Below are positions 7,683 to 59,004 of a stretch of DNA of 59,004 nt, piece after piece. Position 1 is the stretch's first letter, and every line of letters starts with the position of its first letter. The notes under the pieces were generated by a model, which was not told where the DNA came from, searched no databases, and saw nothing but the letters and a program-made list of their open reading frames with translations. A program made the translations under genes and the position numbers. Source of the DNA: an uncultured Pseudomonadota bacterium (lineage in GTDB: Bacteria; Pseudomonadota; Alphaproteobacteria; Rs-D84); the NCBI GenBank assembly GCA_947165335.1, contig CAMVAB010000001.1:1-59004 (forward strand). The letters run 5' to 3'.

Positions 7683-9735
<2,053 letters not shown>

Positions 9736-9738
9736 AAA

Positions 9739-10485
9739 TTATCTTAGATAGAAAGTTATGGTTGATACGACACGAACACGTTTGTTAATCGACTGCTTTT
9801 CATTATCAGACCATGCGTCAACCTGATCACGCGCTGTAATGCTGAACACGCCCTGGTTTGCAGATTGAATTTTACCCAGTTTCGCGTTGGCATCTTTGGC
9901 AAACTGTTCACCGGCGGCTGTTGCGTTTTTCGTTGCCGCTTCTATCATTTGGATTTTAATGTTGTTCAAACCATTAAATACGTATATTGGCCCCGCGTAA
10001 TCTTCGGTAACTGTTACGCCCTGACGAACCAAATCGCCCATTTTTCGTGATACAGAATCAACCAAATTCACAGAATTAGACCGCACCATAACACCCGTTT
10101 CGATAACATATCTGTCATTGTTATCTTGTCCTTGACGTTGGGCATCGCTGTATCCGGCGTATTTATCGCGCACTGTTATTCTTAAATTCTGTAATTCGCC
10201 GTCTTCAAAACCATTATCCATCAAAAAAGCACGTGTTTTTTGAATATCCGAATCAATATCCGCCTGAACTTTTGCTAAATCAGCCCCAACACGATTAAAT
10301 TTAATATTCCACACAGCTGTATCAGCGACAACATCCATTTCAGCCAGTCCTTTGACCGTAACAGTCCGGCGCGCTAACGATTTATAAACGCCATTTCCGA
10401 TAAAAAAACCCGCCAAAGCCACACCAAAAGCTAAAATTATGACCCAAATTGTTGGTAATTCCTTGAATTTTCCGGCTAATTTCAT
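9739..10485 (-). CDS. SIMPL/DUF541-like periplasmic protein (BP26/Omp28-type)
   Basis: TM/signal anchor and a beta-rich body that I recall as the SIMPL family. Start at 10485 is preceded by a GGGAG RBS. The upstream part of the ORF-track call looks non-coding. Confidence 0.6.
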   Translation of the reverse strand: MKLAGKFKELPTIWVIILAFGVALAGFFIGNGVYKSLARRTVTVKGLAEMDVVADTAVWNIKFNRVGADLAKVQADIDSDIQKTRAFLMDNGFEDGELQNLRITVRDKYAGYSDAQRQGQDNNDRYVIETGVMVRSNSVNLVDSVSRKMGDLVRQGVTVTEDYAGPIYVFNGLNNIKIQMIEAATKNATAAGEQFAKDANAKLGKIQSANQGVFSITARDQVDAWSDNEKQSINKRVRVVSTITFYLR

Positions 10486-31254: not shown

Positions 31255-31492
31255 ATAAAATCCTTTTTGTTTTAATTAAAAAATGCCCGAACGGGCACGA
31301 CACAATTTTGATTTATGGTTATGCAAAATAATTTGCGCCAAAAAAACAAAACAAAATACTGGTCCACAAAATGGATTGTCCAATAAATAATACAGTGAGA
31401 CTTTGCAATCGCACTGTAAAATTTATCAAAAAAATCCCCAGAATCTAAAGATTCTGGGGACAATAAAAACCACGCAAAAACGCGTGAAATTC

Positions 31493-31783
31493 TTATTTTT
31501 TCTTTGCTACTTTTTTAACTGCTTTTTTTGCAGCTGGTTTTTTAGCAGGTGCTTTTTTTGCAACTGGTTTTTTTGCAGCTACTTTTTTTGCAGGTGCTTT
31601 TTTAGCAACTGGTTTTTTTGCAACTACTTTTTTTGCAACTGGTTTTTTTGCAGGTGCTTTTTTAGCAACTGGTTTTTTTGCTGCTGGTTTTTTAGCAGCT
31701 ACTTTTTTTGCAGGTGCTTTTTTTGCAGCTGGTTTTGCAGCTGGTTTTTTAGCGCATGCACATTTTTTCTTTAAACCGAACAT
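31493..31783 (-). CDS. Histone H1-like Lys/Ala/Pro repeat protein
   Basis: About 17 tandem AKK(P/V/A)(A/V) pentapeptides, encoded by 15-nt DNA repeats. Confidence 0.6.
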
Positions 31784-35037: not shown

Positions 35038-36060
35038 TTACATCCGCAACAAATATTTTTTCACGAACCAGCCTGAATTCAACTGAATTGCCAAATTTAA
35101 AAAATATTTTTTAAAATTGAAACAATTCGCCCATCTGGTCCAACCAAACAAAGACGCCATCTGTCCGATTGAAAGTTCATTAAAATCTTTGTGTTGAATT
35201 ATGTTTATAATTCTGTTTTTCAATCTTTTTGCTGTTTTTTTTCGCATTAAAATAAAACCATTGAAATGCCGATAACCTATGAAAGGGATTCCATCCAAAG
35301 TTCTTTTCAAATCAGCCTTTGATAAAATCATACTTAAATTTTGTTCAAGAAAGTTTTTAATTTTACTTTTCATGGAATGCAGTTGTTTTTTATCATTGCT
35401 GTACAAACAGAAATCATCGCAATATCGAATATAATCACGACAATGTAAATCATGTTTTACAAATTGATCAAGTTCATTTAAATAAACATTTCCCATCCAC
35501 TGCGAAGTAAGATTACCAATAGGCAAATTAGTATTTCCCCCCACAGAATCTATTATTTCAGATAACACACGCATTATGCGTCTGTCATGAATTTTACGTT
35601 TTACGATATTTTTCATAATTTCATGGTTAATAGATGGGAAAAATTTCCGTATATCACATTGTAAAACATATTTATTGCGCCGTATGAAGTGCATAGTTTT
35701 TTGTGATGCCCCCAAAAGTCCACGTCCAGGGATACAAGCATAAGAATCTTTGATGAAAGATTTTTGCCAAATTGGCCCCAAAACATTTATCAAAGCATGA
35801 TGGACAATATGGTCGGGATACAATGGCAATTTATAAATTATGCGTTGTTTTGGTTCATAAATTTTGAAAGTTTTATAACATGAAGTTTTATATTTACCGG
35901 TTTTAAGACTATTTCTTAATTTTTCTATAAATTCATCTTTGTGTGCCAGAAAATGTTTAACAGATTTCTTTGATTTTTTGCTTTTAATAGCCTTTTTTAC
36001 AGCTAATTCGAAATTTTCTTTTGAAATGAATTTGTCCCACAAATTTTTATAAGTTTTCAT
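35038..36060 (-). CDS. DGR-type reverse transcriptase
   Basis: Motif 4 IGNLTSQ (the DGR signature I/LGxxxSQ), YCDD catalytic box, N-terminus NLWDKFISKENFELAVKKA. The ORF-track start at 36096 is also possible. Confidence 0.9.
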   Translation of the reverse strand: MKTYKNLWDKFISKENFELAVKKAIKSKKSKKSVKHFLAHKDEFIEKLRNSLKTGKYKTSCYKTFKIYEPKQRIIYKLPLYPDHIVHHALINVLGPIWQKSFIKDSYACIPGRGLLGASQKTMHFIRRNKYVLQCDIRKFFPSINHEIMKNIVKRKIHDRRIMRVLSEIIDSVGGNTNLPIGNLTSQWMGNVYLNELDQFVKHDLHCRDYIRYCDDFCLYSNDKKQLHSMKSKIKNFLEQNLSMILSKADLKRTLDGIPFIGYRHFNGFILMRKKTAKRLKNRIINIIQHKDFNELSIGQMASLFGWTRWANCFNFKKYFLNLAIQLNSGWFVKKYLLRM

Positions 36061-36108
36061 TTTTATTCTTCTTTTGTTTTCTTGAAACATCACCACAAAA
36101 AGAACACT

Positions 36109-36435
36109 TTAAGAAAAACTGTAATATCTTTGTACATGAACAACGGTTCCAACGAAAGGTATTTGGTTTGAAAATTCTTTTACCTGTTTAGTTAAAACAC
36201 TGCTGCCTGTAAACAAAACACAAACTTCGCCATCCAATAAGAATTGTAATTGCAAACATTCTGTGCCGTCTTTTTGTTTTGAACGTCTTATTCTGTAATC
36301 GATAACTTTGATTTCGCGGTTAACAATTTCATCAAGACGCTTTTTATTCCCAGGCATAGGCGTTTGATCTTTTGCAAAAACCGAAAATTTTGGACATTCT
36401 GTATTTTTTATTTTTTCAATTTCATCAAATGTCAT
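36109..36435 (-). CDS. 108-aa ORF between TR and RT (candidate non-Avd DGR accessory protein)
   Basis: Intact ORF with a purine-rich stretch (AAAGAGAGAAAA) just upstream of the ATG. Predicted beta-rich and basic (KVIDYRIRRSKQKDG). No resemblance to the helical Avd. Confidence 0.5.
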   Translation of the reverse strand: MTFDEIEKIKNTECPKFSVFAKDQTPMPGNKKRLDEIVNREIKVIDYRIRRSKQKDGTECLQLQFLLDGEVCVLFTGSSVLTKQVKEFSNQIPFVGTVVHVQRYYSFS

Positions 36436-36703: not shown

Positions 36704-36838
36704 GCGACCGACCCGAAAAGCCCGACGCGCATAGCTTCGTTGTTCCGGGCGTTGTTGCCACAGTTGTTCGTGCAATTCGAAGCGCACGAGGCGGCGGACC
36801 CGTTGTCGTTGTTGAACACCCAAAGCGACGCCACGGGA
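36704..36838 (-). repeat. DGR template repeat (TR)
   Basis: 135 nt, GC-rich, non-coding (no start codon). 25 adenines in the sense strand, mostly in AAC codons. Matches VR1 and VR2 except at adenines. Confidence 0.92.
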
Positions 36839-37207
36839 AAAACCCCACGCCACACAACAGCCATCGCACAACCGATTACGACGATGCAACCCAGTTCCGT
36901 ATGGCGGAACCATTCCCAAAAGATTCATGGTGAAATCTTTTGATGATGTATTCTTGTGTTCAAACACATCATTAAAAGATGGTTCTCTCCCCCCCCGTGT
37001 GTGTGGGGGGGGAACCTATTGACCTTCTTTTATAAAGCAAAGGTTTTTCAGGCCGAAACAAAGAAGGTCAATTTCGGCCTGTCCCGCTTTACTGCGGGAC
37101 AGGCGATGTGGGGATTCTCCCCACACCCCTGTTTGCGGCATATCGTGTTTCACACGATATGCAAACCGTTCTGCCGTGCCGCGTGTATTCGCCCCGTTTC
37201 GTTCACA

Positions 37208-37675
37208 TCATTGTGCGACCGACCCGAAAAGCCCGACGCGCATAGCTTCGACGTACCGGGCGTAGTAGCCACAGTAGTACGTGCAACTCGAAGCGCACGA
37301 GGCGGCGGACCCGTAGTCGCCGTTGAACACCCAAAGCGACGCCACGGGATGAGTCATTTTACACCAACAATAACGTCCATATTTTTCACTGCCCTGAACA
37401 AGGTTGGTTTCCCCGTTGTTCGTATCAGTCAACTGCGATTCGTAATACCCCATCGATTTACCCTGGCCCGTATTTAAACACGCAGAAATACCGTATATCA
37501 TGCCGTATGGAAACGTCGCATTCCAAAGCCCTGCTGTCGCATCGTATGTCCCCCCAGCAGTCCCGGCAACCGTTGGATCCAATACCACCACCACAGAATT
37601 ATCAACCGCACACATCGTCGTCGCAAATGACGGTATCGTTATCATCATCATCAATGCTGTTATAATCCGTTTCAT
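37208..37675 (-). CDS. DGR variable protein 1 (155-aa secreted Cys-rich protein)
   Basis: Start MKRIITALMMM with an AAGGAAAG RBS and a signal peptide. C-terminus is YCWCK...SLWVFNGDYGSAASCASSCTYYCGYYARYVEAMRVGLFGSVAQ. Confidence 0.85.
   Translation of the reverse strand: MKRIITALMMMITIPSFATTMCAVDNSVVVVLDPTVAGTAGGTYDATAGLWNATFPYGMIYGISACLNTGQGKSMGYYESQLTDTNNGETNLVQGSEKYGRYCWCKMTHPVASLWVFNGDYGSAASCASSCTYYCGYYARYVEAMRVGLFGSVAQ
37215..37349 (-). repeat. DGR variable repeat 1 (VR1)
   Basis: 135 nt colinear with TR. 11 mismatches, all at TR adenines. Confidence 0.92.
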
Positions 37676-37769
37676 CTTTTCTTTCCTTTTGTTTTGCTTC
37701 TTCCCCGTCCGCTTCTGATTCTTCCCTTGGGGGGAATACTCGCGCAGCAAGAGAGGATAGAATCCCCTT

Positions 37770-38240
37770 TTACCACACCGATTCATACATCGCAGACCGG
37801 AACGTTGTATTCGTTTTAACCGCTGTCATACAATCGTTCGTGCAATTCGATGCACATGTTGCTGCATCCGTATAGGTATCTAAAAACATCCAATATGATG
37901 TTATCCCTGTTTCTGTTCCATACGAATATACGGGTTCCATTTTGCACCAACAATATTTGCCTTGGTCTACGGATGATGTGTATAAATTCGTTTGTGGGGT
38001 TGCGTATGTCCCGCTTATTCCATTACATGCTGCTATGCCTGTTACGCGTTTCGTTGTATTATTTCCATAATCAAAATCAACATACCATATTTTGCCATTG
38101 TTCGATGATGTCCCAGTCGTCCCGGCAATATTCTTTTTCAATATGCCAACATAAGTGTTGTTTTTCGCACACACCGTAACAGCATTTGCAATATCAATTC
38201 CAAATAAACATACAAAAAATAATATTAAAAATTTTTTCAT
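37770..38240 (-). CDS. Paralog of the DGR variable proteins with a decayed (non-TR-matching) VR region
   Basis: Signal peptide and YCWCK motif. C-terminus is ...TDAATCASNCTNDCMTAVKTNTTFRSAMYESVW. Only a 15-nt identical core (37836-37850) is shared with TR. Confidence 0.75.
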   Translation of the reverse strand: MKKFLILFFVCLFGIDIANAVTVCAKNNTYVGILKKNIAGTTGTSSNNGKIWYVDFDYGNNTTKRVTGIAACNGISGTYATPQTNLYTSSVDQGKYCWCKMEPVYSYGTETGITSYWMFLDTYTDAATCASNCTNDCMTAVKTNTTFRSAMYESVW

Positions 38241-38252
38241 GTTCCTTTCCTT

Positions 38253-39041
38253 TCACTCTGTTAACAGTTGCCACCCTGTAAACGAATATCCTGAACGCGA
38301 CGGCGGTGTTTGTGGCAAAACTATGTTTCCTTCGTAAAGACATGTGTTTGTCATCATAGTGTTTTCGCCGTCCGACCATGTCAAAGACACTGTTGGTGTT
38401 GGCAAATCAACACATGTATCACCCGGATTATTATCACAGCGCGTCGTTCGCGTGTATTTCGCATATGGTGATGTACAATTGCCGTTCGTCAATTCACCAA
38501 ATGTATTCGTATTTACTGCGACATCGTAATATCCATTTATACAATCACCCGCAACATACGATACGCAACTTCCCCCCGACAGATACCCATTCGTACATAA
38601 ATTAACCACATTCCCCATCAAAAATCCGTTATATACAGGGTCAAAATCATCCGGCAGCACAATTAACGAATATCCACCAATTTGACATATACCATCACCA
38701 GGCGCCGTAAATGTGGATTCTGTAATGCCAATATTATATGTGCCGTTCATACATGATCCCTGAGTAAACGATGTACAACTGCCACCGGTCAAATATCCGT
38801 CATCACACAAAGTGTGTGTCCCACCCATTACAAAACCATTATATATCGGTTCAAAATCATCCGGAATTTCAATTAATGTATATCCACCAAATTGACATAC
38901 ACCACCAACGGGTGAAACAAATGTAGAATCTATGACATTTGATGCAACGCTGTAACCATTTTGACATGTTGCAGACGCAAAAGCATCCATTGCAAATAAT
39001 TGCAATATAAATAATCTAAAAAATAATCTATACCTACTCAT
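38253..39041 (-). CDS. Secreted Cys-rich tandem-repeat protein with a C-terminal Flg_new repeat
   Basis: GGGGGAG RBS and signal peptide. Two repeats of about 70 aa (C.NG...C.GGY.LI..PDDF.P.YNGF.MG....LC..GYL.GGSC). Ends in GYSFTGWQLLTE. Confidence 0.7.
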   Translation of the reverse strand: MSRYRLFFRLFILQLFAMDAFASATCQNGYSVASNVIDSTFVSPVGGVCQFGGYTLIEIPDDFEPIYNGFVMGGTHTLCDDGYLTGGSCTSFTQGSCMNGTYNIGITESTFTAPGDGICQIGGYSLIVLPDDFDPVYNGFLMGNVVNLCTNGYLSGGSCVSYVAGDCINGYYDVAVNTNTFGELTNGNCTSPYAKYTRTTRCDNNPGDTCVDLPTPTVSLTWSDGENTMMTNTCLYEGNIVLPQTPPSRSGYSFTGWQLLTE

Positions 39042-39250
39042 TACTCCCCCACAAAACAACCACCGTAAATCGTTATGGTGGTTGGAGGTCAGTAGCTATA
39101 AAAACAGATATAGTGTGCTTATTCTATCTTTCGATATTATTCAGCATCCCTCCAACCAATATGTTGGAGGCATTTTTCGTCTGCTCTGCGACGCTGTTTT
39201 CCAATCAGGGCTACTGCACCCAGGCACAAGAACCCCTTGTGCTTAAGTCC

Positions 39251-57981: not shown

Positions 57982-58006
57982 AGATTTTGGTGCATTTATA
58001 AGATTT

Positions 58007-58036
58007 AAAAACACCGGTTTTCACCGGTGTTTTTTT
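58007..58036 (+). terminator. rpmG terminator
   Basis: acaccggt-tttc-accggtgt followed by T6. Confidence 0.8.
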
Positions 58037-58245
58037 CGGCTTAGGAAGGGACCGAAAACTGATTTGTTCCCCTCTGGCTAGAGGGGTGCCGGAACGGCGG
58101 GGTGTTGCAGGTTCTCCCCTTGGGGGGAGTACCGGCGCAGCCGGGGAGGGAGGATCCCCCGCCACAGGCGGGGAATAAAAAACACCCACTTTCGTGGGTG
58201 TTTGCGTGTTGCCGTGCCGCGTGTATTCGCCCCGTTTCGTTCACA

Positions 58246-59004
58246 TCATTGTGCGACCGACCCGAAAAGCCCGACGCGCATAGCCTCGCCGCCCCGGGCG
58301 CGGGAGCCACAGTAGCTCGCGCAATTCGAAGCGCACGAGGCGGCGGACCCGCGGTCGCCGTTGAACACCCAAAGCGACGATGATGCATTTTGTTTATTTC
58401 CATTTAATGGTTTATATCCCGTTGCCTTACACCAACAGTATTGGCCCGTGCTATTTTTATTATATGATGCATCGGTAACGTATAATTTTGACCATATCTC
58501 GCCAGTTGCTTCGTCATATGTTATTGTGCCATTACTGTATCTTGTAAATATATCGGCTGCTATTGCGCCTTTTTCCTGACCAGCCAACGATGTATAGTTT
58601 GCTAAGAATTCATATGGATCCATTTGGCCGCCAACGGCAGATTCTACATTAGCTACAAAATACGCCATACCCGCATCCAATGTTGGTTGGCAACTCGCTT
58701 CACCGTATACTGTGCCATAACTGAATTCTGTTTTCCATTCGTTGACCGCTAAATCGCTTAATGCCGCACTTTCCTGGGTACATACACTTGCCCCTTCAGA
58801 ATCAACAGTCCCATCGCCATATGCAGAACAATAATCTGTATTATTATTCCACCCATGTCCGTAAGAATGATTGCCATCTATCGATGCATTTAATGTGGAC
58901 AGGTCAAATCCACGCACACGCCAGCCGCCGAATGTATATCCGGTCTTTGTCATTGTATTTGTTGGTAATGTTATCACACTGTCGTATGTACATGTGTTCG
59001 CTGT
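58246..59004 (-). CDS. DGR variable protein 2 (Flg_new repeats + large Cys-containing domain + VR2; 5' end outside window)
   Basis: The frame stays open to the window edge (TANTCTYDSVITLPTNTMTKTGYTFGGW...). C-terminus is YCWCK...SLWVFNGDRGSAASCASNCASYCGSRARGGEAMRVGLFGSVAQ. Confidence 0.85.
   Translation of the reverse strand, partial: TANTCTYDSVITLPTNTMTKTGYTFGGWRVRGFDLSTLNASIDGNHSYGHGWNNNTDYCSAYGDGTVDSEGASVCTQESAALSDLAVNEWKTEFSYGTVYGEASCQPTLDAGMAYFVANVESAVGGQMDPYEFLANYTSLAGQEKGAIAADIFTRYSNGTITYDEATGEIWSKLYVTDASYNKNSTGQYCWCKATGYKPLNGNKQNASSSLWVFNGDRGSAASCASNCASYCGSRARGGEAMRVGLFGSVAQ
58253..58379 (-). repeat. DGR variable repeat 2 (VR2), remote from TR
   Basis: 127 nt colinear with TR 36704-36830. 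16 mismatches, all at TR adenines. Confidence 0.9.

Follow-up and report, generated by a model that had tools for sequence, protein, structure and literature searches.

What is the status of a gene that lies beside a hypermutated target, shares its architecture, and carries a short stretch identical to the template from which that target is rewritten? The question is raised by a DNA stretch of 59,004 nucleotides (nt), here called the window, from an uncultured Pseudomonadota bacterium of the alphaproteobacterial lineage Rs-D84 (assembly GCA_947165335.1, contig CAMVAB010000001.1). The window holds a diversity-generating retroelement (DGR), with a reverse transcriptase (RT), a template repeat (TR), and target genes that carry variable regions (VRs) at their 3′ ends. 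The gene just upstream of target 1 (T1), here named PAR, was described in the original prediction as a paralog with a decayed former VR. The analysis reported here points to another answer. PAR is very probably a conserved, unmutated sister gene of T1 and not a decayed VR, its 15-nt identity with the TR being coincidental and the GC islands formed by the TR and VRs having a separate cause, probably a constraint on the TR.

The assembly examined comprises 850 kb in 82 contigs with a GC content of 36.3%, and the window is its contig C1. Related loci, designated by L numbers, come from metagenome-assembled genomes (MAGs) with titles such as "Candidatus Enterousia" and "Alphaproteobacteria bacterium" and with rumen, goat, horse, and gut as sources.

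PAR as a Paralog of Target 1

The two sibling genes lie next to each other.

37770-38240, minus strand: PAR, paralog of T1, 156 aa, not diversified, with a Sec signal peptide, six conserved Cys, the YCWCK motif, and the tail ...TFRSAMYESVW
37208-37675, minus strand: T1, the diversified sibling of PAR, with VR1 at 37215-37349

All the elements of architecture first noted for PAR are present, namely a signal peptide ending in ...IANA and followed by VTVCAK, the YCWCK motif, and the quoted C-terminus. Its paralogy with T1, also proposed at the outset, is observed directly. The two sequences share 34.7% identity over 150 aa (tblastn, E 4e-14), and a family-to-family hhalign comparison of 28 PAR homologs (alignment built without T1) with 7 T1 orthologs gives 99.85% and an E value of 8.5e-31 over 140 columns, C-terminal module included. 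An absence of relationship at the structure level, which would have spoken against the prediction, is excluded by this result. The invariant positions of PAR are C24, C72, C97, W98, C99, C129, C133, and C137.

In the AlphaFold model of PAR (predicted local distance difference test 84.3, predicted template modeling score 0.76), a five-stranded beta sheet is followed by two C-terminal helices bearing the module. A Foldseek search of this model against the PDB gave no significant match (best E 0.13, TM 0.31), and the only lectin among the top matches was a nonsignificant one at rank 49. Pfam and NCBIfam scans of PAR and T1 returned no family. A C-type-lectin (CLec) or FGE-sulfatase-like fold, as in the DGR variable proteins Mtd and TvpA, was thus rejected for PAR, which has neither a significant PDB neighbor nor a Pfam family.

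The PAR Module and the Variable Regions

The cassette qualifies as a DGR by its RT and by TR/VR pairs with adenine-specific mismatches. Its other parts, and the portion of PAR that corresponds to a VR, are as follows.

35038-36096, minus strand: DGR reverse transcriptase (Pfam RVT_1, E 9e-13)
36109-36435, minus strand: accessory gene (acc), 108 aa, not Avd-like, kept beside the RT in all related loci
36704-36838, minus strand: TR, GC 0.60
37172-37214, minus strand: VR-only flank of 43 nt, 3′ of VR1, with a second copy at 58210-58252
37773-37898, minus strand: C-terminal module of PAR, 42 codons, aligned in register and without gaps to the TR and VRs
58246-59004 and beyond, minus strand: target 2 (T2), running past the window end, with VR2 at 58253-58379

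The RT is the only one in the whole assembly, and T2 lies 21 kb from the rest of the DGR. VR1 differs from the TR at 11 of 25 TR adenines and VR2 at 16 of 25; each also differs at one of 101 non-adenine positions, and this single difference is the homology boundary. Since the changes are adenine-specific, both are genuine, current VRs.

The codon-level alignment that had been proposed as a check places all 42 codons of the PAR module in register. At the nucleotide level, 62 of 126 positions are identical to the TR, and 52 of the 101 non-adenine TR positions are mismatched, against one in each VR. Outside the 15-nt core, identity at third codon positions is 9/37 (24%), which is the chance level. 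The module has a GC content of 0.43 and a third-position GC content (GC3) of 0.45, and the remainder of PAR has a GC content of 0.36. An active or recent VR would combine high TR identity with differences confined to adenines, and the 52 non-adenine mismatches led to the rejection of PAR as such a region. An IMH-like 3′ end shared with the TR (IMH, for initiation of mutagenic homing) is also missing, as PAR ends in TTC CGG TCT GCG ATG TAT GAA TCG GTG TGG and the TR reads ATG CGC GTC GGG CTT TTC GGG TCG GTC GCT. The 43-nt VR flank occurs in exactly two full copies in the 850-kb genome, at VR1 and VR2, and was not found there at PAR, at the TR, or at the modules on contigs C2, C9, and C10. PAR therefore has no features of a VR target, because it shows no TR match at non-adenine positions, no IMH-like 3′ end, and no 43-nt flank. 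It does have the location of one, as the module occupies the final 42 codons of PAR, which lies 1.7 kb from the RT.

A peculiarity of codon usage has also been observed. The PAR modules (37773-37898 in the window and its orthologs) overuse NCG codons, with ACG in 16 of 56 Thr codons and TCG in 18 of 77 Ser codons, whereas the genome level is 9-10%. This excess is a mild echo of the codon "dialect" of the TR.

Conservation, Synteny, and Selection

PAR is directly seen to be conserved. A protein search identified 29 homologs with 34-84% identity, whose Cys/Trp framework is invariant and whose tail, (T/D)FRSAxFESVW, is conserved. Intact PAR orthologs stand beside T1 and/or the DGR in 14 loci of other assemblies (L001-L010, L028, L030, L037, and L038), where RT identity falls as low as 57%. 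The cluster to which PAR belongs begins with another secreted protein.

38253-39059, minus strand: UP268, Cys-rich secreted protein of 268 aa with a Flg_new-like end, first gene of the conserved UP268-PAR-T1 cluster

UP268 is syntenic in L001, L004, L007-L010, L028, L030, L032, and L038. The order UP268-PAR-T1-TR-acc-RT is found in the window, L007, and L009, and a similar one, UP268(x2)-PAR-...-T1-TR-acc-RT, in L001. PAR lies between TR and accessory gene in L004 (UP268-T1-TR-PAR-acc-RT). In L038 (Ca. Enterousia scatequi, RT 57% identical) the order is UP268-PAR-acc-RT-TR-T1, and in L037 (RT 62% identical) it is T1-TR-acc-RT followed by PAR on the other strand. L010 and L008 have UP268-PAR-T1 with the DGR on a separate contig, and the same three genes are found on the short contigs L028, L030, and L032, as well as in L006.

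The two distant Enterousia-type MAGs deserve separate mention, as their PAR orthologs (L037:2521-2949, minus strand; L038:726-1154, plus strand) are inside the DGR cassette. PAR comes directly after the RT on the opposite strand in L037 and directly before the accessory gene in L038, and T1 has an active VR in both cassettes, with 13/0 and 16/1 adenine/non-adenine mismatches. In these related genomes, T1 differs from its own TR (almost) only at adenines, with counts of 13/0, 16/1, 9/0, and 15/1.

Whether PAR orthologs still match their own TR was a check suggested with the original prediction, and none of the 12 with an available TR does. The search for such a match in L001, L004, L006-L010, L037, and L038 found none, and the longest substring common to the other PAR/TR pairs is 5-10 nt.

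The ratio of nonsynonymous to synonymous substitution rates (dN/dS) is 0.08-0.39 in the PAR module, and the mature protein outside the module gives 0.06-0.35 (Nei-Gojobori, 21 ortholog pairs). These values, together with open reading frames that are intact in all 14 other loci and in the 29 database homologs, exclude that PAR is a decaying gene or a pseudogene. The proportion of synonymous differences (pS) between orthologs is 0.39-0.73 and dS is 0.55-2.8, near or beyond saturation in most pairs. No nucleotide relic older than the divergence of the orthologs could therefore survive.

Phylogeny was addressed with IQ-TREE on 41 modules of ~105 aa, with midpoint rooting on non-DGR copies from giant surface proteins. 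All VR-type modules form one group (support 82/92), and PAR falls outside it. Parsimony accordingly favors a single DGR recruitment on the VR-type stem over gain followed by loss in PAR.

From these data a simple history can be proposed. PAR would be a functional, secreted, cysteine-rich, and invariant sister of the variable protein T1, and the two genes would stem from an ancient duplication, older than the radiation of a clade of Enterousia-like gut and rumen Alphaproteobacteria. After the duplication, T1 and its relatives would have received new sequence from the TR through mutagenic retrohoming. PAR would have evolved by ordinary point substitution under purifying selection, with a normal genomic base composition, and would never have been diversified since the ancestor of the clade.

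A stronger version of this history can be entertained tentatively, being rather unlikely: this DGR lineage may carry a "fixed plus variable" pair in which PAR is the invariant and obligatory partner, possibly with occasional TR patches. A heterodimeric or co-assembled surface receptor with one hypermutated subunit would be an example. If true, such a partnership would explain why PAR is found within ~1-6 kb of the RT or beside T1 across four gene orders, and it is this linkage which suggests that the PAR and T1 proteins work together. For structural and binding work on this non-lectin DGR scaffold, such a pair of fixed and variable proteins comes with a natural control.

Two irregular T1 sequences were encountered among these loci. 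At a contig end (L029:4411-4792), T1 switches at the YCWC motif to 79 nt identical with PAR of the same contig, the result of either a wrong join during assembly or recombination between T1 and PAR; in L028, which comes from another sample, T1 is normal. A T1 ortholog at L007:8681-9147 has a 1-nt deletion at an adenine-templated VR position, which causes a frameshift; either the DGR or faulty assembly may have produced it.

The 15-nt Identity

37836-37850: stretch of 15 nt identical to TR 36766-36780, reading TCG AAT TGC ACG AAC (S N C T N) on the minus strand

The identity of this core (GTTCGTGCAATTCGA) with the TR is exact, as originally described, and the example then given for the drift of its surroundings, tgcacatgttgctgc in PAR against agcgcacgaggcggc in the TR, is also correct. 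A search for the 15-nt pattern with up to 2 mismatches matched only the TR, VR1, VR2, and PAR, and none of 100 shuffles reached four matches. The stretch lies within C-A-S-x-C-x-x-x-C, which is the fold's most conserved motif.

The statement that PAR is "still" identical to the TR at this point does not hold, since the stretch is derived and not retained. Its closest ortholog, in L028 (84% aa identity), reads TCA AAT TGT GCG AAC and differs at 3 of 15 positions, and TGT is present in all six other nucleotide-aligned orthologs. With L028 and the outgroup states considered together, TCG, TGC, and ACG in the window are lineage-specific derived changes. An in-register run of at least 15 nt has a probability of 0.005 in simulations that keep the PAR protein and use codons as 12 other PAR modules do; after allowing for ~13 own-genome pairs and for post-hoc selection, P is ~0.07. 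The 15-mer is thus unusual, yet not compelling. The identity is probably a derived coincidence of codon choice, with no relic of an earlier match in it.

It is also conceivable, and unlikely on balance, that in this lineage a short patch of the TR (or of unmutated cDNA) was copied into the stable paralog by ectopic micro-conversion. Such an event would account for three derived changes within 9 nt that are all toward the TR state, two of them AT-to-GC and so opposite to the mutational bias of the genome, for a run that codon choice alone produces so rarely, and for the absence of any run longer than 10 nt in the other PAR/TR pairs. Since none of the five TR adenines in the patch is mutated, TR DNA and not the present VRs would have been the donor. 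However, identity in the flanks is only ~50% (28/36 in the best 36 nt), far under the need of RecA-type conversion, and PAR has neither an IMH nor a VR flank for retrohoming. The corrected P value weakens the case further, and NCG codons are already favored in the PAR modules of all genomes.

PAR Is Not a Recent Drop-Out

The original prediction regarded PAR as a former target, whose VR left the homing cycle and drifted to genomic composition, leaving the 15-nt core as the last TR remnant. This is improbable, somewhat more so than a micro-conversion. The common fold, the ungapped and in-register module, the position in the cassette beside T1, and the 15-nt identity with the TR are all in its favor, as is the greater variability of the columns aligned to TR adenines. 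Moreover, such drop-out is known in the family, in the C10 tail, L023, and the T1-like gene of L006 (described below). Several results stand against it. Fourteen other loci, in which RT identity is as low as 57%, hold intact orthologs, and none of these matches its own TR; the module is under purifying selection; and saturation of synonymous sites in most ortholog pairs means that a relic could not last. In addition, the 15-mer arose in this lineage, third positions outside the core match the TR at the chance level, and PAR falls outside the VR-type clade. A recent drop-out is already contradicted by these data, and the description of PAR as a decayed and relaxed VR is not supported.

Some considerations weigh against the preferred reading of PAR as a never-diversified sister gene. 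Every genome compared is a MAG. The VR-type clade is possibly an artefact of 42 TR-homogenized residues, and the PAR rows of the tree form an unresolved comb. PAR is located inside the cassette, where a target would be expected, and the 15-mer is improbable by chance for PAR before correction (P ~0.005). Variability in the PAR orthologs is somewhat greater at columns opposite TR codons that contain adenine than at the remaining columns (1.53 versus 0.95 bits, P = 0.025). This variation among 28 orthologs is moderately raised and conservative (S/T/N/D/A), and it tracks phylogeny; we read it as a sign that both paralogs share an exposed face which evolves faster. An ancestor of PAR may have been diversified before the radiation of the clade. 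Finally, the cause assigned below to the GC-richness of the TR is one that we infer.

Genuine Drop-Outs and Other VR-Type Modules

Loss of homing followed by drift toward AT, the process postulated for PAR, is indeed seen in this family, affecting the 3′ end of the C10 VR, L023, and the T1-like gene of L006; for PAR itself it does not apply. The C10 gene (C10:15333-16466, outside the window) is a duplicate of T2 with an orphaned VR. It shares with T2 a 240-nt tract of 100% identity that ends ~35 nt into the VR, which suggests recent gene conversion. Past the tract, the VR has its own adenine-site states and, up to and including codon 32, no non-adenine TR mismatch. In the remaining 10 codons and the downstream flank, divergence into AT-rich synonymous codons (CTT to TTA, TTC to TTT) is seen. 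L023:8001-8261 and the T1-like gene at L006:10557-11069 are nested in VR-type clades, with long branches, AT-rich tails, and GC3 of 0.33 and 0.38, respectively. No TR match was found for either of them, and they are the best candidates for truly relaxed former VRs.

Other modules have diverged from the TR and nonetheless remain GC-rich. Genes at C9:16767-17414 and C2:658-1431 end in VR-type modules with 16% and 29% of non-adenine positions unlike the TR and with GC3 of 0.81 and 0.71. No second TR or RT that could serve them is present in the assembly, and they may be served by a DGR missing from the assembly or be orphans of long standing whose GC has been retained. Contigs C2, C9, and C10 possibly originate from co-binned strains. 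In the MAG G005 (Horse_feces297; L040-L051), at least 12 GC-rich VR-type modules make up a large multi-copy family; identity is only 66-86% between modules and ~75% to the TR that lies next to the only RT found. The search for their cognate TRs returned best nonself matches of 66-86% identity with many non-adenine differences. The modules of C9, C2, and G005 are thus GC-rich though divergent from the TR, and GC-richness is not a mere read-out of overwriting by the one TR seen.

GC Islands at the Template and Variable Regions

The conspicuous GC-richness of the TR, VR1, and VR2, which was part of the original prediction, is borne out by composition statistics. Their GC contents are 0.600, 0.637, and 0.681, compared with a genome mean of 0.363 (sd 0.057), and only 0.07%, 0.03%, and 0.005% of 135-nt genome windows, respectively, are as GC-rich. 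The windowed computation therefore separates TR and VRs from their background. The accompanying statement that everything around them is AT-rich was too broad, as the spacer between TR and VR1 has a GC content of 0.50 and the 246 nt downstream of VR2 (58000-58245) reach 0.58. These GC-rich flanks are not TR copies, and overwriting from the TR does not explain them. With a threshold of 0.585 over 135 nt, seven of the eight GC islands of the 850-kb genome are the TR, VR1, VR2, the C2, C9, and C10 modules, or their flanks, so that the DGR targets can be located here by GC content alone.

Continual overwriting from a GC-rich TR had been offered as the explanation. It accounts for the VRs, which are GC-rich as copies of the TR (100 of 101 non-adenine positions identical in both); the GC-richness of the TR itself, that of the C9 and C2 modules, and that of the flanks are left unexplained by it. 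The amino acid sequence is not the reason either. Written in genome-typical codons, the TR peptide would have a GC content of only 0.42 and a GC3 of 0.32, whereas 0.60 and 0.83 are observed, and the GC3 of the genome is 0.27. Third positions in the genome are A in 34.5%, T in 38.2%, G in 14.5%, and C in 12.9%. The 42 third positions of the TR comprise 1 A, 6 T, 13 G, and 22 C. Seven related TRs are similar, with A at 0-1 and T at 7-12 of 42 third positions and a GC3 of 0.71-0.83 in 7/7 genomes.

Between TRs, 21-26% of codons for the same amino acid differ, where the synonymous difference of PAR is 0.53-0.70. This low codon turnover indicates that the TR is conserved at the nucleotide level. 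Avoidance of adenine was examined as the sole cause and rejected, because it would give a GC3 of ~0.42 and because third-position T is depleted as well (14-29% versus 38%). A further constraint that favors GC is therefore needed.

The TR can accordingly be viewed as a nucleotide-constrained template, in which adenine is shunned except in the AAY codons meant to vary and T is depleted too, and its composition is copied into VR1 and VR2 at each homing event. The additional constraint could lie in stable pairing of the mutagenized cDNA with the target and/or in how the TR RNA folds or how stable it is. Alternatively, conversion between the many copies of the module could be GC-biased. With synonymous change ~2.5 times slower than in PAR, the nucleotide constraint on the TR supports the notion that every TR adenine is "intended".

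Recent import of a GC-rich foreign cassette is extremely improbable: about 20% of DGRs deviate by at least 5% from host GC, which has been read as horizontal transfer (PMC5758913), but here the RT (GC 0.30) and the accessory gene (0.32) are at or under the host average, and the sharp TR/VR contrast recurs in 7 related genomes with RTs diverged to 57-72% identity and is thus old and maintained, not recent.

GC-rich hairpin repeats (CCCC..GGGG / GGGGAAT..CCCC) have been noticed around PAR, T1, and VR genes in several genomes. They are found in the window at 37719-37767 and 58112-58160, in L004 at 8032-9984, and downstream of PAR in L028 and L032. They are not derived from the TR and add to the GC islands. 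Elsewhere in the window, in a coding region upstream of the DGR, a tandem array of ~15-nt units (15 registers, 62-88% identity) extends over 31466-31781 and is probably a low-complexity protein segment rich in Ala, Gly, and Lys.

Comparison with Known Systems

The practical meaning of these results is twofold. A plausible annotation of PAR as a "dead VR" is corrected to that of a conserved and selected partner gene, and the true orphans are to be sought in C10, L023, and the T1-like gene of L006. In AT-rich reduced genomes, moreover, a scan for GC3 or for third-position A would serve as a practical rule for finding DGR targets without an RT.

The DGR of Bordetella phage BPP-1 has the layout mtd-avd-TR-brt. 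The present cassette resembles it in possessing an RT, a TR, VRs at the 3′ ends of targets, and adenine-specific TR/VR differences. It departs from it in several respects, since the 108-aa accessory gene is not Avd-like, the target fold is not a lectin, the two targets are 21 kb apart, and a fixed paralog lies inside the cassette.

Stable paralogs of diversified targets have been described before. In the DiGReF survey, all but three of the hosts with multi-VR DGRs had at least one further paralog without a VR, and these "conserved ancestor genes" were regarded as stable counterparts (Schillinger et al. 2012, PMC3521204). PAR follows the same pattern, in that a diversified target coexists with a VR-less member of the same family. 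Unlike those paralogs, it is physically linked to the cassette or to T1 in 14 related loci and four gene orders, and its family is an unnamed small Cys-rich fold, not of the FGE-sulfatase or C-type-lectin type.

The GC-richness of DGR sequences also has precedents. Constant segments rich in GC at the two TR/VR ends, an IMH of the same character, and downstream hairpins that are also GC-rich have been described (Wu et al. 2018, PMC5758913), and GC-rich TR/VR ends, the IMH, and downstream GC-rich inverted repeats were likewise reported by Guo et al. 2011 (PMC3240598). Here, by comparison, GC-richness at synonymous sites extends through all 135 nt of the TR (GC3 0.81-0.83 versus 0.27 in the genome), third-position A is essentially absent in 7/7 related TRs, and no GC islands of the 850-kb AT-rich genome are stronger than those at the TR, the VRs, and the VR-type modules. 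GC-rich TR/VR ends and stable non-VR paralogs are therefore already known, and the GC-island feature is largely expected. What is added by the present locus is the tight, clade-wide linkage of PAR to the cassette and the sharp GC contrast in an AT-rich genome.

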